Origin: Eledone cirrhosa
Taxonomy: Eukaryota
DNA: 64,000 nt
Assembly: GCA_964016885.1 (NCBI GenBank)
Contig: OZ024764.1
Coordinates: 20,274,001-20,338,000, forward strand
Reading direction: 5' to 3'
Part shown: piece after piece, positions 2,999 to 64,000 of the stretch
Position numbering within the stretch: the stretch's first letter is position 1
How the letters are laid out: each line of letters starts with the position of its first letter
Made by a program: the position numbers and the translations under genes
Notes under the pieces: model-generated
Databases searched by the model: none
The model's input: only the letters and a program-made list of their open reading frames with translations
What the model was told of the DNA's origin: nothing

Positions 2999-3597
2999 TT
3001 AGTCTTCCTACAATATCATTTAGACAACATTTCTGTAAATACTAAACACCTGAGACTATAATGTAAGTATTATGTCTATTAATATTGTAGATTTAAGCTC
3101 ACTTTTCACATCACAAATATATATTTTCTTGTTTGTTTCATTACTGGAAATATAAAATGTTATCGTAATTATCTATATTTTACCTACCTCTAATTAATTA
3201 AAGTGAAAACTTTTGTTGTTGCTGAAAAATAAATTAACAAAACTAAATATTTAAATATTCTAAAGGTCGTTTTTATATTATGTGATGATATAATTAATAT
3301 ATTTTATTACAATTGTATAAATTTACAGTAGAATAACGTTGTAAATATGTTTTAATTATATACATAAATAACGTAAGTGTGTAAATAACATTATAAATTG
3401 CTGGCAATTCCTTGAGAAAGACATTACAAATATATTGTCTAAACTGTGTATAATAATATAAGTTATTGAACAATAATGATAAAGGAAAGAAAAACACAGT
3501 GGGAGATGGCAATTGACCACCAAGTGTGATAATAGGTCACACCTCACACCTTAGGGGTTAACTACACACTTTGAGGCAAGCCAACACACTGGCAGCA

Positions 3598-8490: not shown

Positions 8491-9089
8491 GTTAGGCAGC
8501 ACATTCTTCACTAAGGAAGGCCTTAGTATTTATTACAGTCCATTTAGAAATATTATATTAAATTTGTACTGATGTATTACAAGTTTCTGAGTATCTTATA
8601 ATGTTCTTTTATTATTTCAGAATACCGGAGGACATTGGCATTAAAGAGCACGTTACATCAGACATATCCTCAACATTAACCTTTTCTAATGAAAGACACT
8701 ACTCATCATTTTCAAATAATTTTGAAAACACACAACACTTTGAAGGGATTTAGTAATATAACTAAATTTCTCAGGATTAAGCTGCTATTTGGAACATAAC
8801 TTTGCACAATTTCATGAAGTTATAATGGAAAGTTTTTAGATAAATATAAAGACTGATATGAAAAGGATAAAACACTTTTATATCAGTTGTTTCATCAACA
8901 CCATTATTTAAAGATGAAAGGGAGCTGTTATACAGAACAGATACAACCTTGTTTATATAAATCTATGGGAGAAATACTGGGAAATGTTTAACATAAAGAA
9001 GAAAAATATCCATATATTGAGAGGAGAAAAATATTAAAACTGTGAATTATGTGAGAAACTGAGGTGATTGATATCTTTTAGTAGGAGAT

Positions 9090-26172: not shown

Positions 26173-27012
<840 letters not shown>

Positions 27013-37892: not shown

Positions 37893-38712
37893 TTAGTCTT
37901 CCTACAACATCATTTAGAAAACATTTCTGTAAATACTAAACACCTGAGACTATAATGTAAGTATTATGTCTATTAATATTGTAGATTTAAGCTCACTTTT
38001 CACATCACAAATATATATTTTCTTGTTTGTTTCATTACTGGAAATATAAAATGTTATCGTAATTATCTATATTTTACCTACCTCTAATTAATTAAAGTGA
38101 AAACTTTTGTTGTTGCTGAAAAATAATTTAACAAAACTAAATATTTAAATATTCTAAAATATCGTTTTTATATTATGTGATGATATAATTAATATATTTT
38201 ATTACAATTGTATAAATTTACAGTAGAATAACGTTGAAAAGATGTTTTAAATATATACATAAATAACATAAGTGTGTAAATAACATTATAAATTGCTGGC
38301 AATTCCTTGAGAAAGACATTACAAATATATTGTCTAAACTGTGTATAATAATATAATTTATTGAACAATAATGATAAAGGAAAGAAAAACACAGTGGGAG
38401 ATGGCAATTCACCACCAGGTGTGATAATAGGCCACACCTCACACCTTAGGTGTTAACTACACACTTTGAGGCAAGCCAACACACTGGGAGCATTACTAAG
38501 GTGTTGAAATAACCAGGTACCCTCACGGGTATCACCTGACACCTCAGTAAGGCGAGGCTAAGGTGCTGAAATAACCAGGTACCCTCACGGGTATCACCTG
38601 ACACCTCGGTAAGGCGAGGCTAAGGTGCTGAAATAACCAGGTACCCTCACAGGTATCACCTGACACCTCGGTAAGGTGTGGCTAAGGTGCTGAGATAACC
38701 ATGTACCCTCAC

Positions 38713-39098: not shown

Positions 39099-40457
39099 TG
39101 ACAACATTTCTGTAAATACTAAACACCTGAGACTATAATGTAAGTATTATGTCTATTAATATTGTAGATTTAAGCTCACTTTTCACATCACAAATATATA
39201 TTTTCTTGTTTGTTTCATTACTGGAAATATAAAATGTTATCGTAATTATCTATATTTTACCTACCTCTAATTAATTAAAGTGAAAACTTTTGTTGTTGCT
39301 GAAAAATAAATTAACAAAACTAAATATTTAAATATTCTAAAGGTCGTTTTTATATTATGTGATGATATATAATTAATATATTTTATTACAATTGTATAAA
39401 TTTACAGTAGAATAACGTTGTAAATATGTTTTAAATATATACATAAATAACATAAGTGTGTAAATAACATTATAAATTGCTGGCAATTCCTTGAGAAAGA
39501 CATTACAAATATATTGTCTAAACTGTGTATAATAATATAATTTATTGAGCAATAATGATAATGGAAAGAAAAACACAGTGGGAGATGGCATTTGACCACC
39601 AAGTGTGATAATAGGTCACACCTCACACCTTAGGGGTTAACTACACACTTTGAGGCAAGCCAACACACTGGCAGCATTACTAAGGTGTTGAAATAACCAG
39701 GTACCCTCACGGGTATCACCTGGTACCTCAGTAAGGTGAGGCTAAGGTGCTGAAATAACCAGGTACCCTCACGGGTATCACCTAACACCTCGGTAAGGTG
39801 AGGCTAAGGATCTGAAATAACCAGGTACCCTCACGGGTATCACCTGACACCTTGATAAGGTGAGTCTAAGGGGCTGAAATAACCAGGTACCCTCACGGGT
39901 ATCACCTGGTACCTCAGTAAGGTGAGGCTAAGGTGCTGAAATAACCTGGTACCCTCACGGGTATCACCTAACACCTCGGTAAGGTGAGGCTAAGGGGCTG
40001 AAATAACCAGGTACCCTCACGGGTATCACCTGACACCTTGGTAAGGTGAGTCTAAGGGGCTGAAATAACCAGGTACCCTCACGGAATCGACTAGATTTGT
40101 AGAAAAAGTAGGGTGAAAGTATACGAAGAGATGTAGTTTCATAGATTTACTCACACCTCACGTTGGGTGGGAAATAATTATTTTTCTTAGATTTTTTTCC
40201 TAGACCCCTTTTCAATATTTTCTCTGAACCCCTTAGATACTTGCAATAGACGTTTTATTCCCCAGTATTAGGGTTAGGGTTTCCGTTTTCAGGAAGAAAA
40301 GTCGATTGCAAACATCTAAGAGGTCGAGAAATAAAATTAAGGAAAGATAATTATTTCCCAGCCAACTGGAGAAGTGTGTAGCTCTTCTAAACTCTGATAA
40401 TCCTGTCTCCCACTTTTTATCTACAAATCTAGTCGTTTCCTGCTACTTTGAAGGCCC
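39099..40457 (+). repeat. Local tandem duplication of exon-1 end, donor, 59-bp array and MITE (40083-40440)
   Basis: Repeats ~37917-39086; second GTAAGT at 39140. Confidence 0.9.
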
Positions 40458-41567: not shown

Positions 41568-44500
41568 CGCCCCCCTGATCTCAAGGATCAATTTCCCCCT
41601 CGTCCCTCTGCATATGAAAGTCTGCTGTCCAGGTCGGTAGTCTACGACTTTGTTGCGATCTTCGTAGTATTGGGGCAGAGCTCTGGGTTCCCACCTCATC
41701 TTGGGTTTCCTCTTCCTCGGAGTCCGTCGACACAGTGATTCTTCTTACGTCCAGGACATGACGTGGTACCCCGTCCACAGACACATTGTTCTTTGAATTT
41801 ACGGCCGTCACCTTCCCCCTTCCCCATTGAGATGGGGAAGGGGGAAGGTGACGACTTCTTCGCCTACCTGCACGAATGCACTCTCTCTCCCCACTGGCCG
41901 TTGTGGTGGCGTGCACGGGTGCCGCCACTTGTATCTGAATACTGCTCTGTGTGGCACCGATTCCTCGACCTGTCCAACCCGAGGGGACATTGTACCAGAA
42001 CACTGCCTCCATTGGTGAGATATGGCCCCGCTCCGCCATTGCCTTGATCGTCCGGTGGTGTCGCTCCACGATTCCATTCCCGCTCGGCCTCTGCGCCGCT
42101 CTGAAGAAACGGTCCACCTTCCATCCATCGAGCATCTCCCTCAGTGCCTCCGAGTGGAACGCTGCGCCGTTGTCCATCAGCAGTTCGTCCACAGGGACCC
42201 GCTCCAAGAACACCTCTCTCAACGTCCGCATGATTTCCTCGGCCGTTCCAGTCTTCATCTCCCTCCATATCGCCTTCCGTCCTGGTCCACAGTCGACCAT
42301 CGAGAGGTACATTCCCTGTCGGTAGTGCGTTACATCCACCGCCAATCGTTTCCAGTCGCGATCCACTGGGAGGCTTCCCGTTTCGTGTACACCCGAGGTG
42401 GATCAATGGACTGACATCGGATGCAGCCTCTAACCACCCTTTGAACACTGTGACTGTTAACGTCTGAGTCGATTCTCCTGGCTAGGAACAGGCTCCTATC
42501 CACTCCCATGTGGTGCATGTCATGCAACCCTTTCAGATCCGACTCGGTCAGCCGACACACGGCAGCTATCTCATCTTCTACCTCCTCCGGCGCTTCCATC
42601 CAGGCTTTCTTCACTCTAGTTAAGATGTCCGCCCTATTTTTCTCTGAGGGCACGAACACTACGCTCAGCCTCAGGTCGAACTCGGTTGCCAGCTCTCCTA
42701 AAGTTCCCAGGCGGCGCTTTATCAGCATCTCCGCCGCGCCTCTCTTCTCACTGGTGAGCACTGATCTCACCTATCCGAGTACAGTAGCCGAGTCAGTGCG
42801 TATCTCGATGGTGCGCAGCCCCCACCGCAGGGCGAGGTTCACCCCTCTCAACACCGCGTCCAGCTCGGCCACATTGATGTGGCTGCAGCCGTTCTTCTCT
42901 CTAAGCCAGGCTGCATCCTCGACCTCAACACCTCCTATCTCCAACGTGACACTCAGCGCTATGCTGCTGGTATAGCACCATACGGTCCCGCTCTTTGATT
43001 TGGGAACATACCAGCGTCGCCGCACTGGGTCCTCGGCCTTCACCCTCCCCACGATCTCCTGCATCATGGCCACCGTCCTCTCTCCCGCTCGTCTCTTGAC
43101 ATAGCTGCATGCCGTCCGGAGCCACCCAGCAATCGGGTAGTGACCCACCAACTTTCCACACACCGAGAAAAGCTCCCGCCTACTCATACTTGGGCCCAGT
43201 TCTGGAACTTCATTTCCCCTCTGGAATACCAAGACGCCCGTCCTGTCTCGCCGTAGCCTAAGTCCCAGTGCGGCTCCTCCCTCCAACGCTTCTGACGGCT
43301 TCGCAGCCAGTCCATACCCCTGTAAATGGCTCGTGACCTCCGCCGCCGCCACCACAGACTCGTCCACTAGGATGTCGTCAATATAGGAGTTAGTGGCCCA
43401 CTTCATCTTGTCGGCCTTTTCCAGAATGGTCTTGAGGACCGCCGCCATGATCTTCGGTGCGGAGCTCAGCCCGAATCCGAGCTTGGTCAGGCAATATGTC
43501 CGGCCCTTATACCTGACCAGCTGATACTGCCAGAGCTTCTCATCTATATGCAATTGCAAGTATGCCGACTTTAGATCCACGATCGCTGAATCCCCCGAGC
43601 TCCCGATAGTCCAGCACCGGCCTCACCTTGCTCTTCGTGGGTTGCGCCACCGCCATCAACGGCAATACTCCGCACTTCACCTCCTCCTTCCAGGGAAGCA
43701 GTATGCCCTCCTCAATCCATCTCTCTACCTCGCTCCTAATAGTTTCCCTTCAATGTGTGTTGATAGCAGCCCACTGTGGTCTTCAGTGTTGGTGGTTCTC
43801 CCTTCCAGTACCACTCAACAACCCATCGCTGCCCATCAAACACGGCCTTGAAGTCTTTGTCCTGTACAGTGTAAGCGGGGTATTTCTCCTCGTGGGCCTT
43901 CTGGTTCTCATGACGTGCACTCACAGCGCATACCGATGCAGCGGCGCCAAACGACACACCGACGTTGTTCACTGTGACGCCCCCTAGACGGCCAATCGCG
44001 TCCATGCCCATAACCGCGCTGATCCCATCCACCACACTGTCTACCACGATGGCGGAAAGCCTCCTTCCCCGTACCGCTATATCCATCTCGCTGCGACCTC
44101 AGCATTCAATTTTCCTGCCGTCGACTGCCCTTACGCTGCTCTTCCCTCCCCACCTCTGCGCCACCCCCGCGGTCACCAGTGTCGTTGTACAGCCCGTATC
44201 CACGAGGGCTCGCTGTGGCTTCCCCCTCACGAAGACTTCCACCACGGGCAGCGCTGCTACTCGTAAGGGGCAACTACCGGCGCAGTAGTTCCCCTTGGAT
44301 CGTTTCCCTGGTCGCAGTTGGTAGCGATGTGGCCTGGTCGCTTACACCGGTAGCAAATTATCTCCGGATTCGACTCTCTACAGTCTCTAGCCATGTGCGG
44401 GCCCTGGCACCGAAAACAGCGCCCTCTAAACGCACGTGGACGGCCGCGTGCCGAGGTTGCCTCCCTTTCACCATTTCGCTACCAGGTGTCCTGAGCCTCC

Positions 44501-45082
44501 GTAGTCGCTATCGCCGCGACACTCTTTTTGGCATCTTCCGCTATGATCCGGGCTTGTTCCACCAGTGAACGCATTTCCATCTCTTTATAACCTGGGACTT
44601 GCTGCAGTTTCACCGTTATGTCGTCCGGAAATCCATTGATGAACGCCAACCGCACCGTGCGTTCGCATTCCGCCTGGGAACCGGCCAACATGGCCAACCG
44701 CCTTATTTCCGCTGCGAAAATGTCGACGCGCTCACCATTCCACCTGATTCTCGCCAGCTTAGCAAAAGCCACCAACGGTCCCTCGGCGAATGCATCCATC
44801 AGACGCCTCTCAATCTTCTGCGCATCTCTTTGGCTGTGCTCGTCCAACTCAAGGAAGAGTACCAACGCGTCCCCCTCGAGGTACAATGCCATGAGGCCGG
44901 CCACGTCCTCTATCTTCTGCAAGCTTGCGACCAGCCGAACCTTCCGCAGCCAAGCGACAACATCACCTTCCCCGGTGAATGCCCTGATAGCTTCGTTCAT
45001 CCGTAGTCTTGTCGCCATCTTCTGATTTGTCTAGCGGCAAGTGTTTTTTTTTTTTTTTTTTTTTTTTTCAGTCGCCGAAATA

Positions 45083-45565
45083 GCTTTTCACAGGCGCCGC
45101 TAAACTCCACTGCAGGTTACTCCCCTTCCACGTGCCTCCAACTGCTTAACACCGGGAGCTGCCCAAAACTCGCTTCCACACCGTTTGCTGGTCACCACTA
45201 GAGAGAGGCCCTCTGCTGGCCCTTCCGGTCGAGCATCCTTCCGGCCAAACACCTCCGGCCACCGCACGCCACACACCCTTCCGGTCGAGCACTCCCCCGC
45301 CTCCGGCCACCCCACGCCACACACCCTTCCGGTCGAGCACTCCCCCGCCACCGGCCACCCCACGCCACACACCCTTCCGGTCGAGCACTCCCCCGCCTCC
45401 GGCCACCCCACGCCACACACCCTTCCGGTCGAGCACTCCCCCGCCTCCGGCCACCCCACGCCACACACCCTTCCGGTCGAGCACTCCCCCGCCACCGGCC
45501 ACCCCACGCCACACACCCTTCCGGTCGAGCACTCCCCCGCCACCCCACGCCACACCATACCCACA
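45083..45565 (-). repeat. 5' LTR (6 x 48-bp repeat, inner end missing)
   Basis: Lacks the terminal ~24 bp present at 41269-41293. Confidence 0.9.
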
Positions 45566-45854
45566 TAATGTTATAGTATCATGATAGGGTAATACAGTTA
45601 TTTATAGACCTGTGGTAGATGTTGGTTCAGTCCACCCTGGGGGGGTGTTAGTGTTGGTTCAGTCCACTCTGGGGGTGTTAGTGTTGGTTCAGTCCACCCT
45701 GGGGAGTGTTAGTATTGGTTCAGTCCACCCTGGGGGTGTTAGTGTTGGTTCAGTCCACCCTGGGGAGTGTTAGTGTTGGTTCAGTCCACCCTGGGGGGTG
45801 TTAGTGTTGGTCAATGATAACCTTTATAATTAGAGGCCTGTTGGTGAGGAAAGC

Positions 45855-47712: not shown

Positions 47713-49342
47713 ATTATAACTAGGTCTCTGTCATTGTGGTTATCTCTACTTATTCCTTTTCTACATATGGAGCAGGGCCACTTTCCTGAAGAGGTCAGGG
47801 TCTTCTCTCCTATCCATTACCACTTTAGTTTTGGCTAAGTATATTCTCAGAACTTAACATTTCAAATTCTATATCTATAGTTGGTCATCTACATAGAGAA
47901 GTTTCCATAGACAGCCAGTCTTAAACCTCTCTGTTATGGCTTGGAGAACTATGATGAACAAGTGGGCTAAGAACTAAACCATGATGAACTCATACCTATA
48001 CCTTCAATTCCTCACTAGACACTTTACTGACAGCTTCTCACAAGCCATTCTTCTACACCTAATTTCTTTAACCCTTTAGTATATAAACTGGCCATGTCTG
48101 GCCAGAATTCTCTCACATCTTTCTGTTCAAACTGGCCGTAACTGGTCACTTATACTTATGTTAAGGTATTGTTCTCAAAATAAATAACATGAAAATCTCA
48201 TAAATTTGATATTATGTGAGATAAAGCATTTACTGTGAAAATATAATAGTAAATATAGAGTAATGTGAATACTAAAGGGTTAATCTGATGTCACTAATAA
48301 CTACTTTTATCAGTCAGTATAATATAATGTCACTAATAACTACTTTTATCAGTCAGTTTAATCTACTGCCACTAATAACTAACGTATGTTAGTCAGCACA
48401 TTCTTCACCAAGGAAGCCCTTAGTATTTATTACAGTCCATTTATCAATATAGAAATATTTTATGAAAGTTGTACTGACGTATTACAAGTTTCTCAGTATC
48501 TTAAAATGTTCTTTTATTATTTCAGAATACCAGAGGACATTGGCATTAAAGAGCACGTTACATCAGACATATCCTCAACATTAACCATTTCTAATGAAAG
48601 ACACTACCCATCATTTCCAAATAATTTTGAAAACACTCAACACTTTGAAGGGATTTAGTAATATAACTAAATTTCTCAGTATTAAGCTGCTAGTTGGAAC
48701 ATAACTTTGCACAATTTCATGAACTTATGATGGAAAGTTTTTAGATAAATATAAAGACTGATATGAAAAGGATAAAACACTTTTATATCAGTTGTTTCAT
48801 CAACACCATTATTTAAAGACTAAAGGAAGCTGTTATACAGAACAGATTCAACCTTGTTTATATAAATCTATGGGAGAAATACTGGGAAATATTTCTTGTA
48901 AACTCAATAACACTTCTATTCTTTGCTGTCTGGAATATGTAGAAGATACAAAATAAAGCTGAAGAAATTCACAAATGATTTTGTAAGATCTTCATATATT
49001 GACAAAGATGATAGTAGATGGAACTACAGGAGTAGAAATATTTCCATTATTGGAGGAATAACTAATCAAATGAAGACCAGAAAAATTAGATTCTTCACTG
49101 TCTGGAATTTGTACAAGATGATTTTATATGTATATTAAACTTGAAGAGATCTACAAAACAGTTTGTATCATCTTTAAATATAAAGAAAGACCAAGTTGAT
49201 GTAAATATATCTGGAGGAATATGTTTTAGGAATAATATTATAAACATAAAGAAGAAAAATATCCATATATTGACAGAAGAAAAATATTAAAACTGTGAAT
49301 TATGTGAGAAACTGAGGTCATTGATATCTTTTAGTGGGTGTT

Positions 49343-49954
49343 ATGTCGAAAAATATAGTAAAATCACCATTCCACTGTGATATCTGTGGTAAATCATTCT
49401 CTCGTAGTAATCAGCTAACTACTCACAAACGTATTCATACAGGAGAGAAGCCTTATCACTGTCAAATCTGTGGTAAATCATTCAGTTACGGTAGTAGCAT
49501 CAGAGTTCACAAACAAATTCATACAGGAGAGAAGCCACATCACTGTGACATCTGTAGTAAATCATTCTCTTGCAGATATATCTTAACTAATCACAAACGT
49601 TTTCATACAGGAGAGAAACCATATCACTGTGACATCTGCGGTAATTCATTCTCTCAGAGTAATCACCTAATTACTCACAAACGTATTCATACAGGAGAGA
49701 AACCATATCACTGTGATATCTGTGGTAAAACATTCTCTGACAGAAGTAGCTTTGTTAAACACCAACGTACTCATACAGGAGAGAAGCCATATCACTGTGA
49801 CATCTGTGGTAAATCATTCTCTCGTAGTAATCACCTAACTACTCACAAACGTACTGATACAGGAGAGAAGCCATATCACTGTGACATCTGTGGTAAATCA
49901 TTCTCTCAAAGTGGTAACTTAACCAAGCATGTGCATGTTCATACAGAAGTTTAG
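49343..49954 (+). CDS. C2H2 zinc-finger protein, 7 fingers (203 aa)
   Basis: ATG at 49343 matches the [12 protein letters not shown] start of the paralogs. Finger 6 has His->Asp. Confidence 0.9.
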   Translation: MSKNIVKSPFHCDICGKSFSRSNQLTTHKRIHTGEKPYHCQICGKSFSYGSSIRVHKQIHTGEKPHHCDICSKSFSCRYILTNHKRFHTGEKPYHCDICGNSFSQSNHLITHKRIHTGEKPYHCDICGKTFSDRSSFVKHQRTHTGEKPYHCDICGKSFSRSNHLTTHKRTDTGEKPYHCDICGKSFSQSGNLTKHVHVHTEV

Positions 49955-51808
49955 CTGTATCAATATCAAACTCATTACATCATACTACAACAACGACACC
50001 AAATATGTAGATCCATCATCCTTGCTAAAACTGGGGTTAACCTTGTAGGTTTTACCTATGACAGGGATCATAAACACCAGGTTTCCATTTTTGAAGCAGT
50101 GTTTGAAGATTTTGTGTAAATTAAAGTTTTTCACATTAAACTTTGATTTATTATACTTTAACAGGTAAGATATATATTTGTATTTTCAGTAAAGGTTGGG
50201 AACTTCTGTAATTTAAACCTGCCAATAAAATGAAAACTTTTGTTGTTGCTAGTCTGACATTGATATTAATTCTATTGTCCTGTACATTGTCTCAAATATC
50301 ACAGATTAAACAGATTTTAACAATAACAACAGAAATCAATAACTTGTAAGCCTAATATCTAGCTTCCATTTTAAATATTTGATATTGTTGTTCCCCTCCT
50401 GTCTCTTCAGGTCTTTTAGATTTCAACTTCTATCTACTATACTATTCCATCACCAAGGCAACATTCATCTGGCTGGCAGCTTACATCAACTACAGATCTC
50501 ATCAGTGGTTCACAACAGGCTGTCTGAAAGAAACTTCCAGATATCTTCTATGTCATAGCTATCAATCTCCTCCTCCTTATCATATGTATCATGTAGAACA
50601 TCTCTGAATTTATATTTAACAAGGAGATCTTTTACTATCCCTAACCTTGTCTCTAGGTTGTCTTGTACCTCTCTCACAGTCCTTCTAGATCTTATATTTA
50701 ACAGGGAGATGTTTTACTATCCCTACCCTTTTCTCTAGGTTGTCTTGTACCTCTCTCACAGTCCCTCTAGATCTTATATTTAACAGGGAGATCTTTTACT
50801 ATCTCTACCTCTTTCTCTAGGTGGTGTTGTACTTTTCTCACAGTCCCTGTAGATCTTATATTTAACAGGGAGATCTTTTACTAGCCCTACCCTTTTCTCT
50901 AGGTTGTCTTGTACCTCTCTCAGTCCCTCTAGATCTTATATTTAACAGGGAGATCTTTACTGTCCCTACCCTTTTCTCTAGGTGGTGTTGTACCTCTCTC
51001 ACAGTCCCTCTAGATCTTATATTTAACAGGGAGATCTTTTACTCTCCAACCCTTCTTTCTCCAGATAGTCTTTTATCTGTCAGTCCCTCTAGATATTACA
51101 CCTAGTATCTAGTCTATGTTGAGTGGTACGTCCTTCTCCAGTAAAGGAGTTAATATTCCCAACCATCTGTCTATCCTGTTTTCTGATGAGAATGAAGTCA
51201 ATCTAGTTTATCTCTTCACCTGATTGAAGTAACTAGATCAAGTAACTAGATGATTTCCTGTAAGTTAGTGTTGCAGTGTTTGTGTCACCATGTAAGGTTT
51301 ATATCTATTAATATAGAGATGTAGTAAAGTTTTCACTGTTGTATCTCTATTTTCTAAATATCTTAATAATGTTTCTCTACTATTTCAGAATATCACATGA
51401 CCTTGACAGAAAAGAGTCTCTTGAAGACAACAGAAAGATGTTACATACAAGTGATATAAACTTGTTTAGTCTTTGGTGAATTATGGCGAAATATTTCTTC
51501 TGAATTGAGATAAATAACAACATTTTCCTTTTTCACTGTCTGGAATATTTACAAGATGATTTTACATTCTGATTAAACTTTGGATATTTACAAACATAGG
51601 AATATTTTCCAGAAGAGATGGGAAAATCATTATACCACTGTAATATTTGTGGTAAAGTATTCTCTCTTCTTTATATGTAGAATATCTAACTAAACACTTA
51701 AACTAACAAACTATTGTGCTATAGAATTGACAAACTTGAGGAATGTTTAATAAATGTTACAGATTTCTCCAAACTGTCGTTTACTAACTTTAATTTGAAG
51801 CTATATTA

Positions 51809-52221
51809 TCTATATACTACTAAAACTCTGTGATTGTGTCTTGTCTGTAATTTAATACAGCTAAAACAGTGCATAATGGGGAAATACTTTGAAAAGAATA
51901 AAACAAGTTTTGTATAAATTGGAGCACGGATTCCCAAGATACGGGGTTTTCTGGGTACCTTCATAAATATAGGGAGAGAAAGAGATAGTGGTTGTGAGAC
52001 TGTGGATTGAAAAGGAGAGATAGAAGGAGATGGATGGAAAGGGGAAGAGAGAGAGAGAGCTGGTGGTGATGTTTAACAATATGTGTGTGTATATATATAT
52101 ATATGTGTCTATATATATATATGTCTATATTTTAACTACTTGAAAATTATTTTTAAGTGCACATGATTTTAGAAAAAATAGTTTTAAGGGAACGTGACCC
52201 AACAGGTCCCGGGTGGTCTAG
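51809..52221 (+). mobile_element. Non-autonomous Helitron (unit C)
   Basis: TC..hairpin..CTAG; paralog of 11880-12243. Confidence 0.76.
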
Positions 52222-52789
52222 TTTGTTACTAAATACTAGATATTAGAGGGTCATGTTGTTCTAGATGTGCTGGAAGAGCCATTCCATCTCGCGAGGCTCA
52301 CACCAGCAGCTAGCCACCTCAGCACCTATGGTGGTATATTTATTATATTATTTATTCTTTATCATTAACATTAATATAAAAGATAATTATATATTTTTAG
52401 AGAAGAACCTCTAATTTCATATGGCATGGGTTAGACGAGTTATCCTGTTGTAAGCAAGGCCAGGTCAGGTGATAATGTGTTGCTCCTATAGAACAGTGTG
52501 GACTGGGTACTTTTTGTTGTGACACCTACACGACCACTTTAAAGTTTGGGCTGGGTACTTTTTGTTGTCACCTACATGACCACTTTACAGTGTGGGCTGG
52601 GTGCTTTTTGCTGTGACAGCTACGCAACCGCTTTATAGTGTGGGCTGGTTTCTTTTTGTCATATCACCTACATGACCACCTTATAATGTTGACTGTGTGT
52701 TCTTAACAGTGTGGGCTGGGAGCTTTTTATCATATCTTCTACACAACCACTTTGCAGTATGGGCAGTGAAATATCAATAATCAGAAGAA

Positions 52790-53285
52790 GGGAGGTAGGC
52801 ATAAAAGCCAAACTTGCTGTCTTCAATTAGGTTTTTGTGCCAACCCTTACCTATGGTCACATATCTTGGGTAATGACCAAAAGAATATGATTGCGAATAC
52901 AAGTGGCAGATATGGGATTCCTCTGAAGGGTCTTTGAAGAAACGTTTCTCAATAAAGTGCATAGCTCTGAGATCAGAGAGTCACTCCAGGTGGAGCTGTT
53001 ACTTCTCCTAATTGAGACATCACAGCTGCAATACTATGGCCATGTGGTTAGAATGTCTGAGGAAAGAATCACTGGATAGATTTTACAGGCAAAACTAACC
53101 GGCAGGAGACCCAGGGGTAGACTTGAGCAAGATGGTCACATAACATCCATGAGCTTGGCTGGTCTCTTTGGGAGATCCAGCCATATCAGTTGGAGTGGGT
53201 TGCTTCTGACAGGACCTGTTGGAGGGAGTGTTTGAGGACTCTGCCCCCAAGACCCTCTCTGGAATAAGTGGGTTAATAAGAAGAG
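52790..53285 (+). mobile_element. Expander/Rex3-like RTE 3' fragment
   Basis: KAKLAVFN*VFVPTLTYGHISWVMTKR..IQVADMGFL, YGHVVRM and GRRPRGR. Confidence 0.75.
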
Positions 53286-53575
53286 GTTGAGGTTACAAAA
53301 TCAACATCAGATTTCCCTGCTAGCAAGGGTTTAATGAGTCTACTTCAACCAAGTAAGTACTGAAGTGAGGCTACTGATCTCCCACACAGACCAAGGATCT
53401 GAGACTTACTTACATAAGGTCTCATTTGCTACTGTGTGCACAGAAAAGGTTGTCATGTCTTTGTCATGATTGAAGGGTTCTCCGACACTATTGTCGGGCA
53501 AGCTTTCTATGGCTAGATGTCCTTCACATGACCAACCACATTACAGCCTGTGTTGGGTGTGTTTATCATGTAGGT

Positions 53576-55457
53576 GAGGCATAACAAACTGAGGGTTCCC
53601 CAAGGGCCACATAGGTCACATGTGTTGTCTGAGGGTTGCACACTGCAACTAATTATGTACACAACAACTAATTAAGGTCATTTCATAAAATGTAATACAG
53701 AAAGATTTGTTACTTAAATTTAGAAACATACAATGTACATACAAATGTTTTAGCAGCATTCATGAATACAAAGTAATGAAGTAGTTTGACAAAAAACTAA
53801 AATTTCACATGTCAACATATACTTGCAGATTGTAACAGCAACAAATACATTGTACACAAATAACAACAGTTGAAAACTGAACATTTATTTGCTACTATTC
53901 AACCATTTTTAGTGTTTTGTGCTGAGGCTTGACACTTCTTTCTGTTGACAATTTTTGGTATGTCTGGCTGAAATGTTTGTACAGTTCCAACTTTAATCAG
54001 AGATGACAAGTGTTGATCTTTCAGCCTTGTTCTCTGAGAAGTTTTTGTTAAGCTAAGTACAGACTCAGTATGGGCAGTGATTTTCAGCTCTTTGCACATA
54101 AGAAAATGTATTAAATTTTCATCTGACAACGGAGACTTCCATAAGCTAAGTTTTCTAATGAAGAACTTTATGTCATCATACAACTGAGTGATGGGTTTGT
54201 TTTTACCTTGTAATTTCAAATTAAGATCAGTTAATTGTGCAGTAATATCCACAACAAAAGCCAGATGTTGGAGCCAACTTTCATCTTTTATTTCATCTGT
54301 GTTTTGACCTTTCATCTCCAAAAACATAATTATTTCAACAAATAGAATCTTTTCAGCACTTTGTGACATGTCAACCAGCAGACTTCTGTGTAGAATGGAA
54401 CATCGGTGAACTGATTATCCATATCTTCCAACAACTGGCTGATCTGACGGTGGTTGAGAGCACGGCCTCTGATTTAGTTCACTGTCTTTGTGACCAAGCT
54501 AAGCACATGATGCAATTTTAAAATCTTTGAACATAAATTTTGCTGATGAATAATAGTGAAAATGTGCAAATGATGAATCTAGATATGAGTTTTCTATTTT
54601 TGTTTGTAACTATAAATATTAAATTCACTGTCACAGGCCCTGATAAAGAATGCAATCTGTACTATTCCAGTGATGTCAACAGTCTCATCAATAGCAATAG
54701 AAACATGTTCAAACCTTGATGATACAGCCTTTAACTGTTGTTTCAGATCACCTGACATTTCATTAATCTGTTCAGCAACAGTGTTCCTGGTTAATGAAAT
54801 GTCTTTGAATAACTGTGCTTTCTCTGGACAATTTCAGCTGTTTTTACAAGACATTGCTTTACAAAATCTCCTTCACTGTAAGATTTCCCACTCATGGCAA
54901 TCATTCGACTGAGTTCATAGCTTGCAGTAACGGAAGTGACATTCTCTTCCTAAATTAACATAAAACAGGTCTGTTGCTGTGTCAAGTTAACCTTCAATTC
55001 CTTGAGTCTTGAAACACACATTGGGCCTTCATATTTATCGTAAGATCGAGGGTTTGTTTCATAATGTCTTTTTAAATTGTACTCTTTTGGCGTGGAGATG
55101 TAGTTGTTGCAAATTAAACAATGTATCTTTCTGTTCACCATTGGGCAAAAATACTGTAATTCCCACTTTTCTTGAAACACTTGCCCTTCTTCGTTCAATT
55201 TCCTTTTTCTCTTAGCTGGAGGAGCACTAACCATTTCAAAAACAAAATCATTTGAAATTTTGAAAGAAAGTTTTCTGTTAATGAGCTGCACGTGATTAAT
55301 GGAAGTTAAAAGTAGTTGACAAAATTTACAAAAAAAAAATAATTGTATCGAAAATGTTTTAAATTTTATATTACGAAAATGAAACATGCTCGCACTGTAA
55401 AAACCTTAGTGTAGGCCGCAGGTTTGCTTGCAAAGGGCCGCATGTTTGACATGTCTG
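53576..55457 (-). mobile_element. hAT (Buster/Charlie/SPIN-like) transposon with both ends, internally deleted
   Basis: 8-bp TSD ATGTAGGT at 53568-53575 and 55458-55465, with degenerate TIRs. ORFs 54950-55387 and 53899-54369 (WLQHLAFVVDIT..LNLKLQG). Confidence 0.92.
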
Positions 55458-55609
55458 ATGTAGGTTACCAACACTAGGGAGGGCAGCATGTCCTTCAGTG
55501 TGTTCTCTACATTAACTACCAGGAGGTCACCACATGAGACAAAGACTACATTTCAAAGAGGGGTCATAAAAGAACTAAATACGAAAGTACCCACAGCAAC
55601 AAGCAAATA

Positions 55610-56026
55610 ATTGAGCTTTGGGTCTGGGTCAAGGGGGCAGAAGTGCTGTGCCCTGTGGATAAGACTACAAATGTATCCCCCCCCCCTGGTCGATGGACAG
55701 TTACACCCACTGCAACAGCCACCCCAACCTCATGGGACACCCTCTTCAGAAGGGCCACCAACGTTCTGATCTTACAGAGGAGCTTGGCAGTACGGGGTCC
55801 AAGTACTTCTGAGGTCTCGATGGTGACCAGTGTGAAGAGACCTACAATTGATGTCATCCCAGTTATGTTGGACTGTAATATACTGGGGTATAGAGAGGCC
55901 TTAACCTGTCTCAGCCGGGCCACCCAGGGTTGTGTCATCTAGGTACCAGACAGGGGTGACTAGACCATGTTGTCAACTGTCAACACCAATAGGAGTGAGG
56001 CGAGTGGGTCCCCTTGCTAGACACCA
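55610..56026 (-). mobile_element. Relic of CRE-like retrotransposon (paralog of 850-1258)
   Basis: GV*QGDPLAS and WYLDDTT motifs. Confidence 0.6.
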
Positions 56027-56272
56027 TATATAAAACGTATTTGCTAATTACTTTAATGAATAATTTGTTTCATACGTAATTATTACTTTTAACACAATAG
56101 GATTTTGTACACGTGTTTGTTTGAAAACATCTTTCAAAGAAGTATGAGACAGTCTTTTGTAGTGTTTATTATAATAAATTACTGTATGTTGAGCTGTTTT
56201 AACTTCTCCACCTTCTATTATTTTATATTGTTTTTGTAAAAAAACGATATCTTTTTCATATATATATATGAA

Positions 56273-56483
56273 GGCGTGTGGCTGAGTGGTTAGAGAATTG
56301 GATTCGGAATTGTGAGGTTGTGAGTTCGATACCCAGACCCGGCTATGCGTTATGTCCTTGAGCAAGACATTTTATTTCACGTTGCTCCTTCTACCTGGAG
56401 TTGCGACCGATAGATAGTATTAGCAATTGGAAAGACCAATGGAAACATTGTTTCCTCGGTCCGATTTGACGAAAAGTCGATCA
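56273..56483 (+). mobile_element. tRNA-derived SINE with Pol III boxes
   Basis: A box TGGCTGAGTGG 56279-56289, B box GTTCGATACC 56324-56333, core TGTCCTTGAGCAAGACA. Confidence 0.85.
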
Positions 56484-57454
56484 TAAAAAATGTACATAAA
56501 TATATATAGAGAGAGAAAGAGAGAAACATACACTACTGTTTAACATGTAAGGGGAGACAACTCTCGTTACATCCCCTCTTCTTTTTTGATATAAGTTCTT
56601 TAAATACTTTGTTGAATGGAATCTGCTTTATTTTGTCCTAAGTAGATTTCTGTTTAAGTATTTACGTGATTCACAACGATTCACGTAACTAAGTTACTTA
56701 CATAGAGATATATTTCACACAGAATCACAACAAATGAAAATATTAAGTCAACACTCTGTCAATCAGTCTCACATCACATGGGGTGCCGGAGTCTCCCTCT
56801 AATACTTTCTGAGACAGTCTTACCTCGAGTGATAGCAAGGCTAAGATGTTGGAACTACCAAACACCCACATATGTATCACCTGACACCTCGGTAAGGAGA
56901 GCTGCCAACGATAATAAGAACCTCGTTGTCAGGGACCTATCTCCTCCAAACTTCTCCAACACCACAGACTAGAATATTCTACTCTTTATTCCCTATCAAA
57001 TATATTTCAGTCTAGTCATTTATCTTGTATCTTGTATATGTATTTTCAAAACTAACTGTCACATTTGTGAGACCCCACTTAGTGATATTTTTCTCTCCCT
57101 CCCACATCCTACATGCTGTAGTAAAAGTGAGGGTCACTGCTTCTGTAGACGAACGAAATAAAAGTTAAAATACCAGTAATTATCGGCAAAGTATTTATTC
57201 CAGTCTGTGATGTTTGAGAAGCTGGGCTGCTGACAACGAAGTTGTTGTCACTGTTGGCGGCTGGCTTTACCGAAGTACCAGATGACTCTTGTGAGGGTAC
57301 TTAGCTGTTCTGGCGGTTTAGCCCCCATATGACCCGATCTTACCGAGATACCCGGTGATCTCTGTCAGAGTACTTAGCTGTTCTATTTTAATTACATTTA
57401 CTGTTTTCAACGTTATTTTTTTTTATTACAAACTCTACAGAAAGTAAAAATATT

Positions 57455-57549
57455 TTTACGTCAGAAAAAATATTTTACGTCACAAAAAAACTTGACCTTT
57501 GACATTGAAGCATGCGCAGTGGTGCAGTTGTCGACTTCCTGTCCACGTG
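57455..57549 (+). promoter_or_regulatory. Putative ZNF promoter D
   Basis: Two TTACGTCA, TGACCTTTGAC, GCATGCGCA (57510), ACTTCCTG and CACGTG; donor at 57614. Confidence 0.68.
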
Positions 57550-58074
57550 TTAGTCTTCCTACAACAACATTTAGACAACATTTCTGTAAATACTAAACAC
57601 CTGAAACTATAATGTAAGTATTATGTCTATTAATATTGTAGATTTAAGCTCACTTTTCACATCACAAATATATATTTTCTTGTTTGTTTCATTACTGGAA
57701 ATATAAAATGTTATCGTAATTATCTATATTTTACCTACCTCTAATTAATTAAAGTGAAAACTTTTGTTGTTGCTGAAAAATAAATTAACAAAACTTAATA
57801 TTTAAATATTCTAAAGGTCGTTTTTATATTATGTGATGATATAATTAATATATTTTATTACAATTGTATAAATTTACAGTAGAATAACGTTGTAAATATG
57901 TTTTAAATATATACATAAATAACATAAGTGTGTAAATAACATTATAAATTGCTGGCAATTCCTTGAGAAAGACATTACAAATATATTGTCTAAACTGTGT
58001 ATAATAATATAATTTATTGAACAATAATGATAAAGGAAAGAAAAACACAGTGGGAGATGGCAATTGACCACCAA

Positions 58075-61000
58075 ACGAGGTAAACATTTTCAACTTTCCC
58101 CTTTTTTTGCTTTGTCCGAGACAACTCAAAATATTCTTCAAGGAACTGGATTTTCCATTCGGTTGGATCGAACGGATTTTACCATTTATAATCTACGGAG
58201 AGGAATAACAGATGTTCGGAGGAAAAAAGAATTGTTTGTGGCAACAACGTAGGGAACCAACCTGGAGCAATTGTATCACACAATTATACTTTCCTCCTTA
58301 ACATACACTTACAATTTTTCAAAATCAAACCCCCCAAATATAAAATATAAATAATTATAAATGGCGAGGAACCATCCCATCTCCCTCTTGAAATAACCTG
58401 AATCTATTTATAGTCAGGTGTGACTGAAAGGTCAATCCATACTTCCATTCTATTTCACAGAATTAGAAGCTTTGACCACTTGATAGAATTCAGGTCCAGT
58501 AATGTAATCACTCCGTAATTGTAAACATCTTGTATCACTATCATTCAGGTTTTGATTTTACTTAAGTCTTGCCCATGTTTTTTTTTTTTTTTCTTTTTTA
58601 CACAAACTCACAATTTCGGTTTTTACTGCGGATTTACCCATGCGAACTATTACACAAACTCACAGCCTTAGATTTTGTATTTCTTGCGTTTTTATTTTCC
58701 TTCTCTTTGCATGTTCAGTGCTCTTTCTCTCCCACTGTATTTACCTGCCTCTCACATGACCACACTCCTCTCCACGCACTCATCATCTTCTCACTCCTTC
58801 TACACCTTCCAACGCTGGCCCTCTACTGCCGGCTGTTGCCAGCCCGCCACCTGATTGCGCCCTCTGTGCCTGCACTAACCAGTACTTAAAGACAATTAAA
58901 TGTCACCTATGCCACGCAAGCTACCACAGAAGCTGTGTCAGCATCACCAAAGCTCAAGCCGAAAGGCTTCAACACTGGACCTGTCATAGGTGCCACTTCA
59001 GCTCCGTCTATTCCGTGGTTTTTGGCGCGGGAATTGACGTCCTTCGTCCTCAACATCTCAAGGATGGTATCTCCTTATCGGCCGGTGATGCCGGACTCGA
59101 GCTCTTAGAGAGTCTGACTCAGTTTGTGAATCAGTGAACGTTCTCCCGTTCATCCGCCCACTGTTCTTCAGTGCGAAGCTATTTGGTCTCACCAAGCCCA
59201 ACGAGGACCTGCGCCGCATTGCGGTTGGCTGCACACCTCGCCGCCTCACTGCAAAGGCGTGATTGCTGTTGGTCTCCAACCCACTGGCGGAGGAATTTTC
59301 CCCCATCCAGCTGTGGGTGGGTACCAGGTTGGGATGTGTGGCTGCTGTCCACGCTGCCAGAACATTTGCCAACTTGCCCTCCTCATCCCCCAAGGTCATC
59401 CTCAAACTTGACCTCAGGAATGCCTTCAACTCCGTCAGCCGTAACATCATCCTCGGCTCAGTAAGAGAGAGGGTCCCACAACTCTACCACTTTGCTTGGC
59501 AGGCTTATCGGGAGCCCTCCTACCTCTCTTTCAGTGACCAGATCATCACCTCTGCCTCAGGAGTCCAACACTGGACATTGATGACGTCACCATGATGGGG
59601 GCTGAGTTGGACCTCAATGTCTGGTAGCTCGACGACGCCTGTTTCGGGGGAACTCCGGATATGGTTCTCGCCACTGCCAACAGGATGGTGGAGGAGCTTG
59701 GCGCCGGGATCTCCAGATCAATAGCTCCAAATGTGAGCTCTGGATCCTCAACCACCCGGCTTCTTAACACCAACAGCTGATCGACCTGTTCGCAGAGTCC
59801 TTCCCTTCCATCACGGTCCCTCCCCCGTCGGCTTGGTGCTCCTTAGGAGCCCCAATCACAGACCTGGCCTTCGAGTCAACCATCCAATCGAAGATGGTTG
59901 GCCTTGAGCAGCTGCTGAGGAATATTGAAGATATCGAACGCCATCAAGGTTTCTTCTTACTCAGGAACTACCTGTCTATTCCTAAGCTTCTGTATCTGCT
60001 CAGGGTCAGCCCCTCTCACAGATTTCCATCCTGCCTCCAACGCTTCGACGACCTAATCTTCGAGAGACTCGAGTGTCTGGTCAATGTTAGTAAGTGTTCG
60101 TCCCTCTCTCTCCCCTGCTTCCTTTCCTCCACCCAAGCTTGCAGCATCCTCTCCTCTCAAACACGGACTAGTTCCAACAGGGAGTTGTGTGAAGCTCTCC
60201 AGCAATGGAGTGAGTTGGGCTTGTCTCTTCCTGAGAAGGTGGAGGACAGTCGAAGTCAGAGAACTTGGGACATGATATGTTGGAATGCCACCTTCAACTC
60301 CCTCTTCGTCCTCTCAGATCAGTCTGCAAGGTGCCGCTTACCATCTGCCAGCGCCAAATACTCCGGTGACTGGGTCGATGCCTTACCCGTAGCCAACGTT
60401 GGAGGCCTACTCAGCCTGGATGAACTTCGTGTCTCCATCACCCTCAGAGTGGGAGCTGACGTCTGCATGGGTTTGAGATGTGGCTAACTCCTCCACTCCA
60501 CAGGCCTCCACGGTCTTTCTTGCCGCCTGAATGCCGGCCACTTTGCCCGTCACACGGAGCTAAACTTTATTCTGAAGAGAGCTTTGGCCCGGGCAAACAT
60601 CCCCTCAGTCTTGGAACCATCTGGGTTGTCCAGAAGTGACGGCAAAAGACCTGACGGCCTTACCCTGTGCCCCTGGTCGAGAGGCAGGTGTCTACTCTGG
60701 GACGTCACTGTTAGTGACTCCTTTGCTCTTTCCCACATCCTTGATGCTGCGGTAAGGACGAGAGCCACAGCTTCGGCAGCCGAGCGGAGTAAGACCCTCA
60801 AATACTCTGATCTGTCGGCCAGCTACATTTTTCAGCCTGTGGCTTTCGAGACGTTTGGGGGAGTCGGGCCGCTGACTGCGAGGTTCCTTTCCTCACTGGC
60901 GGCTCGCCTTATAGAGGTAACTGGCGAAATCGCAAGGGCGCTTGGCTGTTCCAGCACCTCAGCCTCGCCATCACCCGATGTAACACTGCCAGTGTGCTGG

Positions 61001-61356
61001 CTTGCCTCAAAACTCATTAGAGAGGTTTCCCAGTACCCCTCGTTGCTGTCTTTTGCTCTGGTGTTGGCTCCGTTGTCCACCCCTTCCTTTACATTTTCTT
61101 TAATATTGCAACATTGAAGGAATTTATCTTTCATTGTATCATCCTTTATAGTGTTACCGAGGCATTTGTAATGTTATTTATATACTTAAAACATATTTGT
61201 TATGTTATTCTACTGTAAATTTATTTATATGCTCTGTTTATGTTTTCATTCTGAAGGAACTTATCCACTTGTGTTGATATAAGTGATGCTATGACTTTCC
61301 TCTAAGCATTGTGTCATTATATATGTTATTATAAACGTGAATATATTGAATTTATA
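58075..61356 (+). mobile_element. CRE-clade (RLE) non-LTR retrotransposon with N-terminal PHD finger, decayed
   Basis: Insert between CCACCAA and GTGTGATAATAGG, which are contiguous in A. RT: RRIAVGCTPRRL, KLDLRNAFNSV, W*LDD, LGAPI. Then GLHGLSC/RH and RLE: KRPDG..WDVT..K..KY..AFETFG. PHD at 58856-58993. Confidence 0.88.
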
Positions 61357-61606
61357 GTGTGATAATAGGCCACACCTCACACCCTAGGGGTTAACTACAC
61401 ACTTTGAGGCAAGCCAACACACTGGCAGCATTACAACGTGTTATGGTGAGGCTAAGGTGCTGAAATAACCAGGTACCCTCACGGGTATCACCTGACGCCT
61501 CTGTAAGGTGAGGCTAAGGTGCTGAGATAACCAGGTACTCTTACGGATATCACCTGACACCTCAGTAAGGTGAGGCTACGGTGCTGAAATAACCAGGTAC
61601 CCTCAC

Positions 61607-61966
61607 GGAAACGACTAGATTTGTAGAAAAAGTAGGGTGAAAGTATACAAAGAGATGTAGTTTCACAGATCTACTCACACCTCACGTTGGGTGGGAATAA
61701 TTATTTTTCTTAGAATTCTTGCTATACCCCTTTTCCAGTATTTTTTCTCTGGACCCCTTAGATACTTGCGATAGACGTTTTATTTCCCTGTATTAGGATT
61801 AGGGTTTCCGTTTTCAGGAAGAAAAGTCGATTGCAAACATCTAAGAGGTCGAGCAATGAAATTAAGGAAAGATAATTATTTCCCAGCCAACTGGAGAAGT
61901 GTGTAGCTCTTCTAAACTCTGATAATCCTGTCTCCCACTTCTTTATCTACAAATCTAGTCGTTTCC
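61607..61966. mobile_element. Palindromic MITE (unit D copy)
   Basis: Same TIRs as 3756-4111. Confidence 0.85.
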
Positions 61967-61976
61967 TGCTACTTTG

Positions 61977-62255
61977 TTCCCTGGGGTATGCCTTAGTATT
62001 TGACACCATCTATCTGTCTTACTCCCCAACTAGCAAGAAGTCAATCTGTCTCATGTGCTCACCTGATTGGTAGGTTATTAGGTGGTTGGTAGGTTTCTTG
62101 AAGTGTTGCAAATGGTTAGTTCACTTGCATCACAAAATACAAGAAGCCTCACTCCTTCTTCATTTCTTGAGCCATAACCATGACCACCATGTACCCCAGT
62201 GTATCCATCCTGGAGCTGTCCAACATGACCATTGAAGTCCCCTGCTATTATAACT
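61977..62255 (-). mobile_element. RTE fragment (APE region)
   Basis: Paralog of 7505-7785. Confidence 0.85.
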
Positions 62256-62680
62256 AGGTCTCTGTCATTGTGGTTATCTCTACTTATTCCTTTTCCACAT
62301 TTGGAGCAGGGCCACTTTCCTGAAGGTGTCGGGGTCTTCTCTCCTATCCATTACCACTTTAGTTTTGGCTAAGTATATTCTCAGAACTTACCATTTCAAA
62401 TTCTATATCTATAGTTGGTCATCTACATAGAGAAGTTTCCATAGACTGCCAGTCTTAAACCTCTCTGTTATGGTTTGGAGAACTATGATGAACAACAGTG
62501 GGCTAAGAACTAAACCATGATGAACTCCTACCTGTACCTTCAATTCTTCACTAGACACACTTTACTGACATCTTCTCACAAGCCATTCTTCTACACCTAA
62601 TTTCCTTAACCCTTTAGTATATAAACTGGCCATATCTGGCCAGAATTCTCCCACATCTTTCTGTTCAAACTGGCTGTAAT

Positions 62681-64000
62681 TAAATAATAATAATAATAAT
62701 GAAATTATTGTGTACAGTGCTCAGGTGCACTACATTTCATCAAAGGTGCATGTATAGTACATAGAATAATGTACAAATGTCAGGAAAATGAACAGTGCAT
62801 GAGTCATGATATAATAACAATAATGAAGTATTGTGTATAGTTCCCAGGTGCACCACAACTCATCAAAAAAGTGCATGTACAGTACATAGGGCAATGCACA
62901 AACATCAGTAAAATGAACAGTGCACGAGTCATGATACACACGTGTGCATGTGTATGGAAGGGGTACATCAGGTGTACTTTTGGCGTATTTCGGGAAGCTT
63001 GAGTGTCTTAAAGGATGCAGTGTCTCGGCAGCTAACAACTGACGCAGGCAGTTTGTTCCCTACTTCAGCAACTCTGAGCGTGAAAAAATGTCTACGAAAG
63101 TCATGGGAGCTGTGCTGTTTTCTGATCTTGTAGGCATGTCCACGTGTGTTAGACACATGGAGATCAAAGAGGCGCTCAGGGTTGCAATTGGCGAGATGGT
63201 TAAAAACTTTGTGGGTATTCACCAAGTCCATTGCCAGACGTCGGAGCTTCAATGAATTCATGCCCAGGGACGCAAGGCGTTCATAGTATGGTAGGTGTCT
63301 GATGGAGGGTATGTGCTTGGTTGCACGTCTCTGAACAATTTCCAGGAGGTCAATGTTCTGAGCAAGATGGGGGTTCCAGACTGATGATGCGAATTCCAAG
63401 TGTGGTCGTACCATAGCTGTATACAGTTTTAAATAGATGGCTGGAGAGCGGCTAACAAAGGTCTTGCTGAGTGATGCCAAGACACCCTCGGCCTTCTTGA
63501 CAATCTTAGAGACATGCTTTGTCCAACGCAAATCGTTGCTGACAGTAATGCCCAGGTCACGTTCACAAGAGGACTTTTTGATATCAGTGTTGTGGAGGGA
63601 GTATGTGGACGCTGGATTTTTCCTTCCAGAATGCATGGTGGTACACTTGTCCACAGCCAGCTTCAGTTGCCAGTCTGTGATCCATTGCTGCATTGTGTCC
63701 AGGTCTGATTGTAGGAAAGAGTTGTAAATTTCAGGATCAGTCCTTTGGATTTCAAGGTACAGCTTGATGTCATCTGCATATTTCAGTACCGTGGCATTCT
63801 GTAAGTTGGCATCTATGTCATTAATATATGCCACAAACAAAAGAGGACCAAGAACAGATCCCTGTGGTACACCAGATGACATCTCATATGGTGAAGAATG
63901 CTGTCCTAGAACCGTGACTACTTCTTTTCGGCTGAGAATGAAGGATTTCAACCAGTCGAAAAGATCATCCCTCACACCCATTGCAGAGAGTTTTGCCATA
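62681..64000 (-). mobile_element. CR1-clade LINE, 3' part with open RT ORF (62968-63999)
   Basis: GVPQGSVLGPLLF, YADDIKLY, VRPHLEFASSVWNP, VQRRATK and TRGH motifs; (TTA)n tail at 62681-62700. Confidence 0.93.

Follow-up and report, generated by a model that had tools for sequence, protein, structure and literature searches.

A PHD finger in one frame with the reverse transcriptase of a dispersed retrotransposon family in Eledone cirrhosa

Introduction

The window analysed here is a 64,000-nucleotide stretch of the Eledone cirrhosa genome (C25:20274001-20338000, in a genome of about 3.0 Gb), near the right end of which a degraded retrotransposon carries a PHD finger in frame with reverse transcriptase (RT) sequence. 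The locus raises the question of whether this finger belongs to the element or reached it by accident and, if it belongs, to which lineage such an element should be assigned, what the finger may do and where the element inserts. On balance, the best explanation appears to be that the window holds a dead copy of a family that joins a PHD finger to an RT, a CCHC knuckle and a restriction-like endonuclease (RLE), and that the finger would likely act as a chromatin tether.

The PHD finger and its reading frame

The forward-strand peptide encoded at 58856-58993, CALCACTNQYLKTIKCHLCHASYHRSCVSITKAQAERLQHWTCHRC, follows the C4HC3 pattern and has a Trp two residues ahead of Cys7; a preliminary description made from the letters of the window had already read it as a C4HC3 PHD finger with the conserved Trp. 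A search with the Pfam profile PF00628, proposed at that time as a check, gives 24.0 bits (E 3.9e-5) for the window peptide, a borderline score that equals the curated cut-off (24 bits), and 31.2 bits for a sister copy on another chromosome (L016). The finger is confirmed as real and beyond chance, because its eight zinc ligands are invariant in all 35 aligned sequences (the frame of the window together with two sister copies and 32 foreign relatives), the AlphaFold2 model built from this alignment reaches a block-mean predicted local distance difference test score of 93-97 over residues 31-80, and every one of the best Foldseek matches of the model in the PDB is a PHD finger (Alfin-like 1 and 3, BPTF, Pygo, EBS, PHF8, PHF2, Cfp1 and TAF3). 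For the AL1 PHD, the predicted model aligns with a template modelling score of 0.87 by target and a root-mean-square deviation of 1.2 Å over 51 columns.

A single open frame (58760-59137) passes without a stop from the PHD finger into GAGIDVLRPQHLKD at 59024-59065, the motif that precedes the RT. The continuity of this frame had been described correctly, but the direct junction is an artefact: the finger abuts the pre-RT motif in the window because 578 bp are deleted at 59017-59023. In fuller copies (L016, L018) and in the foreign relatives, about 195-270 residues lie between the two, in the same frame.

Family layout and retention of the PHD finger

A genome search with the PHD peptide yields 1,685 first-look candidates (a loose count); 150 were scored, all with E <= 2.9e-22. 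Full copies, measured by BLAST against a reference copy, are about 4.4 kb long and encode in a single frame the PHD finger, a linker of about 195 residues, the RT, a CCHC knuckle and the RLE. The open reading frame (ORF) of L016, 474 residues in length, begins with a Pro/Ser/Thr-rich stretch, followed by the PHD finger (residues 115-160), the linker of about 195 residues and the first RT motifs. In the 513-residue ORF of L018 the PHD finger occupies residues 20-63 and the Pfam domain RVT_1 residues 327-491 (45.7 bits). Frames further downstream at both loci supply the remaining RT, the CRCGKLLDSTGLHGLSC knuckle and the series KRPDGLTL...WDVTV...KYSD. These ORFs and the intact foreign relatives described below bear out the earlier claim that the finger shares one frame with the RT of an RLE retrotransposon.

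The C4HC3 pattern is retained at 34 of 39 loci selected by their PHD. Loci chosen in this way are unable to show whether the finger is integral to the family, and an independent search with the C-terminal 337 residues of L016 was used (29,040 first-look candidates, again a loose count, with 119 scored). The sample consisted of the 20 best new matches off C25 and two lower-ranked matches with long open frames. Sixteen of the 20 are 5'-truncated downstream of the PHD position; the four copies that reach the 5' region all carry PHD-coding sequence, in varied states of decay. The PHD finger is integral to the family, and the supposition that it is a host exon joined by chance to the window copy alone, named in the preliminary description as what would refute its reading, is refuted to near certainty by its retention among both PHD-selected and C-terminus-selected loci, by its presence in copies on many chromosomes and by the intact foreign relatives. 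The frequent 5' truncation, the excess of C-terminal over PHD candidates and the lack of long terminal repeats (LTRs) are traits of RLE-type long interspersed nuclear elements (LINEs).

Relatives in other animals

Outside this genome, a word-indexed search limited to longer proteins returns 91 relatives, and an exhaustive search of 50%-identity representatives gives 8,274 matches at E <= 1e-3, with 426 at E <= 1e-30. Where relatives are intact, at 950-1,010 residues, the PHD finger stands at residues 6-70 and is followed by the RT, the knuckle and the RLE; hypothetical proteins of the psyllid Diaphorina citri are among the relatives with names. PF00628 is found at E <= 1e-3 in 20 of the 47 relatives scanned with Pfam (14 reach the cut-off), and 18 of the 91 show a C4HC3 pattern upstream of the RT. 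RVT_1 scores 55-87 bits in relatives; the window has RT fragments only. In a quick maximum likelihood tree built without an outgroup from 87 rows of the RT core, the family and four PHD-bearing relatives cluster with a Shimodaira-Hasegawa-like approximate likelihood ratio (SH-aLRT) value of 98, and the surrounding 27-row group includes 16 members with a PHD finger. The PHD-RT-RLE layout is shown to be conserved in this genome and in other animals.

Accessory domains occur in some relatives (P0013, P0018, P0029, P0032, P0076, P0023, P0041, P0028, P0017). Among them are a USP deubiquitinase after the endonuclease, at times together with an N-terminal PHD finger, a protease of the OTU or Ulp1 type at the N-terminus, and C2H2 fingers.

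Clade placement

A profile of 29 foreign relatives (A2) matches two solved R2 proteins, 9nl3 and 9dou, with E 7e-27. The match covers profile positions 241-926, spans the RT, the linker, the knuckle (C..C..H..C) and the RLE (RPD, D-x-T, K..KY), and identifies the family as an RLE-type non-LTR retrotransposon. The family resembles R2 (9nl2, 9nl3, 9dou, 8gh6) in being alignable from the RT through the RLE and in inserting without target duplication. In contrast, R2 has a zinc-finger/Myb head and inserts in 28S ribosomal DNA, a single relative matches R2 weakly (E 1.3e-7), and the RT of R2, in the alignment of PMC7650587 used below, has a longer motif-1 spacer, LSP and A-x-ADD.

The element had been called CRE-type from the outset. 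The clade call comes from reading the motifs by eye against an alignment of 86 RT sequences (supplementary Figure 6 of PMC7650587), and the tree holds no reference elements. Among the 86 RTs of that figure, YLDD is confined to SLACS and CRE2, and CRE1 has YIDD (PMC7650587). YLDD is near-universal in the 91 relatives and, to the eye, the compact RT of the family is like that of the CRE elements shown there: short K-x-N-G-x-x-RPI spacing, Q-x-GVG, and LGP after G-V-x-Q-G. One public barnacle record, which lies within 90% identity of the relative P0076, bears the name 'Retrotransposable element SLACS protein', a name that presumably comes from an automatic best match. The order of parts is also that of the CRE clade of trypanosomatids (SLACS, CRE1, CRE2, CZAR), with a single ORF in which the RT is followed by a Cys-His knuckle and the RLE. 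Against this, the head of the family is a PHD finger rather than C2H2 fingers, and the family lives in animals and has neither a spliced-leader nor another sequence target. The founding traits of CRE are thus not present, and the earlier label stands for the RT motifs and the SLACS-named record, but not for targeting or for the head. With this division, 'CRE-type' seems a reasonable label and probably the better choice.

A sizeable minority of our confidence goes to a place outside CRE, either in a separate unnamed RLE clade or nearer to R2, NeSL or Hero, with the CRE-like motifs being ancestral or convergent. Such a placement gains from the comparison having been made by eye, with no reference CRE, R2, R4, NeSL or Hero elements in the tree, from the dispersed insertion of an animal family as opposed to the spliced-leader specificity of trypanosomatid CRE elements, and from the Ulp1 protease that some relatives carry, as NeSL does. 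It has to contend with the restriction of YLDD to SLACS and CRE2 among the 86 RTs, with the K-x-N-G-x-x-RPI spacing, Q-x-GVG and LGP that match CRE, and with the SLACS-named record within 90% identity of P0076. Hero in particular is rejected as a home for the family: HERO-1_BF, HEROTn and HERO-1_SP have GCTISP/GCTLSP and MDD in the same figure (PMC7650587), compared with QQGDPLGP and YLDD here.

Variable N-terminal modules are known from other RLE LINEs. NeSL/Utopia elements, which carry one to three zinc fingers or a Ulp1 protease and target U2 small nuclear RNA or spliced-leader genes, are described in the accessible portions of PMC4640811, where a PHD finger is not reported; the relatives of the present family, with Ulp1, OTU, USP or C2H2 domains, are like them in this respect. 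The CR1/L2-type LINEs, which have an apurinic/apyrimidinic endonuclease (APE), offer a LINE-encoded counterpart of the finger itself. As Kapitonov and Jurka are said to have described in 2003, their PHD fingers reside in ORF1; there the finger is part of a separate protein, whereas here it belongs to the same polypeptide as the RT and the RLE.

What the PHD finger may do

In sequence and fold the PHD finger is nearest to readers of di- and trimethylated lysine 4 of histone H3 (H3K4me2/3), namely BPTF (profile E 6.3e-6), PHF2, Cfp1, TAF3, Alfin-like proteins and EBS. In the mechanism that we favour, the finger, which takes the position of the DNA-binding zinc fingers in R2 and CRE elements, would probably anchor the integration complex to chromatin or to another non-sequence feature, rather than to a DNA sequence. 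It may in this way contribute to target choice, and the element, by homology with R2, would copy itself through target-primed reverse transcription. Chromodomain integrases of chromoviruses, LTR elements in which the integrase carries a histone-reader fold and integration is tethered, and other cases of tethered integration, provide a parallel in manner of working only: in both cases a histone-reader fold could steer integration, but there the elements have LTRs and an integrase.

A tether of this kind need not read histones, and the two more specific proposals receive less of our confidence. That the PHD finger reads histone tails is a tentative suggestion, drawn from its nearest sequences and folds. 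That a widespread CRE-like lineage of animals exchanged its sequence-reading fingers for a PHD finger of the BPTF/TAF3 type, and picks its sites through H3 tails, is more speculative still and would be improbable at present.

Several observations weigh against this account of the family and its finger. The longest frames are short, as an ORF of more than 557 residues is absent from the 28 PHD-selected loci listed. The aromatic cage of H3K4me3 readers, which includes a Trp two residues before the ligand His, is incomplete in the window family. The position of the BPTF cage Trp holds Ser in the window family (HASYH) and Y, L, I or P in the four nearest relatives, and Trp occurs there (x-W-F/Y-H) in only 8 of 34 aligned PHD fingers. 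The remaining positions of the cage lack aromatic residues, and one just ahead of Cys1 is missing from the window and seldom present in relatives. Between Cys2 and Cys3 runs a basic loop of conserved sequence (N-x-R-K-K/R), a feature that would fit nucleic-acid binding or nuclear import equally with histone binding. Finally, the CRE affinity is suggested by motifs compared by eye and by one automatic name.

These features feed an alternative in which the finger is integral but does not read histones: its basic loop might bind DNA or the element RNA or serve in nuclear import, or the finger might recruit a host protein. We give this possibility about the same modest weight as histone reading itself. 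The missing cage Trp, in the family and in 26 of the 34 aligned PHD fingers, and the conserved N-x-R-K-K/R motif speak for it, and so does the DNA binding of the N-terminal fingers of R2, as presented in the parts of PMC5678591 and PMC7650587 that treat them. The nearest sequences and folds, which are all H3K4me2/3 readers, and the canonical x-W-F/Y-H kept by eight relatives speak against it. A chromatin tether remains the favoured role, at modest odds.

Insertion boundaries

The bounds of the element, 58075-61356 (3,282 bp), are set by three element-free paralogous units within the same window, because there the flanks of the insertion (left to 58074, right from 61356/61357) run together without interruption, at 3523, 38418 and 39602. 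With slashes marking the junctions, the filled site reads ...gaccaccaa/ACGAGGTAAACA...GAATTTATA/gtgtgataatagg... and the empty site ...gaccaccaa/gtgtgataatagg.... Comparison of filled and empty junctions reveals neither a target-site duplication nor loss of target bases at 58075-61356. The 3' bound corresponds to the true end of the family, as L060, on another chromosome, has the same tail through GTGAATA and then diverges.

The target stops at the 5' junction with CACCAA, and full copies have the same six bases ahead of ACGAGG. This is microhomology and reflects no longer relationship; an older copy of the element's 5' end was considered as the origin of the left flank and rejected (local alignment score 18 versus a shuffle mean of 19). 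The exact microhomology at 58063-58088, shared by the target and by the element sequence immediately upstream of where the copy is truncated, is 6 bp long, and the similarity reaches about 13 of 15 bases when one indel is allowed on each side. A short, inverted piece of the 3' end of a further copy of the family lies about 100 bp upstream of the insertion, at 57845-57975 (-), and forms with the 3' untranslated region (UTR) of the element (61174-61224, +) a 51-bp inverted repeat of 88% identity.

Genomic setting and target choice

The window is part of a large tandem cluster of C2H2 zinc-finger genes, with finger exons at 9072-10121, 26173-27012 and 49325-49954. A DNA probe from the 3' end of the element places all 40 scored matches on C25, at 19.1-23.9 Mb and with 98-100% identity; among the C25 loci the 3' junction is common to 27 of 30 and the 5' junction to 10 of 11. 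The C25 copies are one insertion into the zinc-finger cluster that segmental duplication then carried to at least 40 copies, and these duplicates later gained different internal deletions. The abundance of the element on C25 reflects the duplication of the cluster, not transposition.

The probe yielded C25 duplicates only, and independent 3' ends were drawn from the PHD- and C-terminus-selected loci. Independent copies elsewhere end in ...GTGAATAAA(A) and continue into unrelated flanks. Across more than 10 independent 3' junctions the flanking DNA shows no common target sequence, therefore the family has no sequence-specific target.

The preliminary description had placed the PHD finger about 460 bp downstream of a putative first exon and had seen in this an accord with promoter-proximal targeting. 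The point about 460 bp upstream of the finger (about 58396) falls within the element's own 5' leader, which is common to dispersed copies, and the targeting proposal is without support here because the supposed exon lies inside the insertion. An aim at promoters or first exons is, on present evidence, very unlikely. The kinship of the finger with readers of H3K4me3, a mark of active promoters, might be taken in its favour, as might the fact that, in the paralogous units, the target lies 5.5-11 kb upstream of the exons that encode zinc fingers. However, the target at the window insertion is an unrelated repeat found beside other copies too, in repeat-rich DNA of the cluster, and the 40-fold duplicated insertion amounts to one case.

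State of the window copy

In pairwise MAFFT alignments with four fuller dispersed copies (L052, L059, L063, L018), the window copy shows 90.4-91.9% identity. Relative to these it has lost, besides the two large segments listed in Table 1, 31 bp at 59568 and 63 bp at about 60089, and 15 bp present in three of the four are missing at 60140. With the first large deletion went the start codon, along with the N-terminal Pro/Ser/Thr-rich stretch that fuller copies have, and the fuller ORF start is visible in L016; at the second, about 534 bp are still present in the local sister copies L005-L012. Stops replace the Tyr of YLDD (59622-59651) and break the knuckle (60479-60523), and there are frameshifts as well. 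The copy is dead, internally deleted and ordinary debris.

Homology of the 5' leader to copies on other chromosomes extends over 58402-58781 in L015 (92%) and 58368-58800 in L017 (93.5%), and begins at about 58062 in L018 and L019.

Two variants of the 3' tail exist in the family (L088, L060, L077, L079 and the window at 61260-61356), both ending near GTGAATAAA. About 15 bases past AATAAA, L088 carries a stretch of 20 or more A; most copies lack an A tail.

Table 1. Coordinates of the element and of the empty target sites in the window (an asterisk within a peptide marks a stop).
Feature	Position	Strand	Basis or remark
Empty paralogous target site, ...gaccaccaa/gtgtgataatagg...	3484..3563	+	Flanks contiguous
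Empty paralogous target site	38379..38458	+	Flanks contiguous
Empty paralogous target site	39563..39642	+	Flanks contiguous
Whole inserted element copy, 3,282 bp	58075..61356	+	Degraded, internally deleted, no target-site duplication
Element 5' leader	58075..58806	+	Homologous to dispersed copies on other chromosomes
Deletion point, 416-444 bp gone	58806..58827	+	MAFFT against L052, L059, L063, L018
PHD finger, C4HC3	58856..58993	+	Translation, Pfam, alignment, model, Foldseek
Deletion point, 578 bp (PHD-to-RT linker) gone	59017..59023	+	Comparison with fuller copies
Pre-RT motif GAGIDVLRPQHLKD	59024..59065	+	Aligns with GSGAGPDGLRPQHLKD of relatives
RT core, shifted frames	59209..59651	+	Weak RVT_1 match (E 0.013) and motifs
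RT core piece LRRIAVGC	59209..59232	+	
RT core piece QLWVGTRLGC	59308..59337	+	
RT core piece KLDLRNAFNSVSRN	59404..59445	+	
RT core piece SGVQ	59557..59568	+	Cut by 31-bp deletion
RT core piece W*LDDACFGG	59622..59651	+	Stop in place of Tyr of YLDD
CCHC knuckle region, CG*LLHSTGLHGLSC...	60479..60553	+	Broken by stop; family profile aligns the block with R2 proteins 9nl3, 9dou
Restriction-like endonuclease: KRPDGLTLCPW, LWDVTVSD, ERSKTLKYSD	60644..60811	+	Motifs; profile A2
3' UTR ending ...ACGTGAATATATTGAATTTATA (tail variant B)	61020..61356	+	Common to L060 up to GTGAATA

Other features of the window

A second, unrelated LINE family carries a PHD-like finger directly after the RT (28952-30634, +; L015:3-1532, -). 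PF00628 scores 24.5 bits for this finger in L015, and a stop splits it in the window copy. A similar copy of that family at 13458-14372 has an APE-type endonuclease. On the reverse strand, 41581-45030 is a retroelement with an integrase core (rve), an RT, the RNase H-like RVT_3 and DUF7047; it adjoins a tandem array of peptide repeats of about 15 residues (45100-45601). An ORF at 54950-55405 (-) encodes a Spin-doc-type C2H2 zinc finger (PF18658, 28.1 bits) and may, together with 53899-54414 (-), belong to a transposase-like gene that was domesticated or has decayed. Rfam gives no match at gathering thresholds over 50000-64000.

Significance

In the full-text literature, a search to which Repbase, Dfam and subscription papers were external, a PHD finger in an RLE-type LINE is not found. 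Matches to 'PHD' there concern the academic degree (PMC13580325, PMC9004415) or a figure legend on other elements (PMC9977147).

For the window taken alone the finding is modest, the copy being dead and its abundance on C25 a product of duplication. For the family it may reach further. R2-like RLE LINEs are now engineered for gene insertion, and it is the N-terminal head that sets their target. If the proposed role is true, a natural histone-reader head, conserved among intact elements from several animal groups, would suggest aiming at chromatin state rather than at sequence, and a PHD head would help to explain how site-specific ancestors became dispersed elements. Should the finger indeed read H3 tails, this would be the first case of a LINE guided by a chromatin mark, and it would offer a natural template for chromatin-directed tools of gene insertion.

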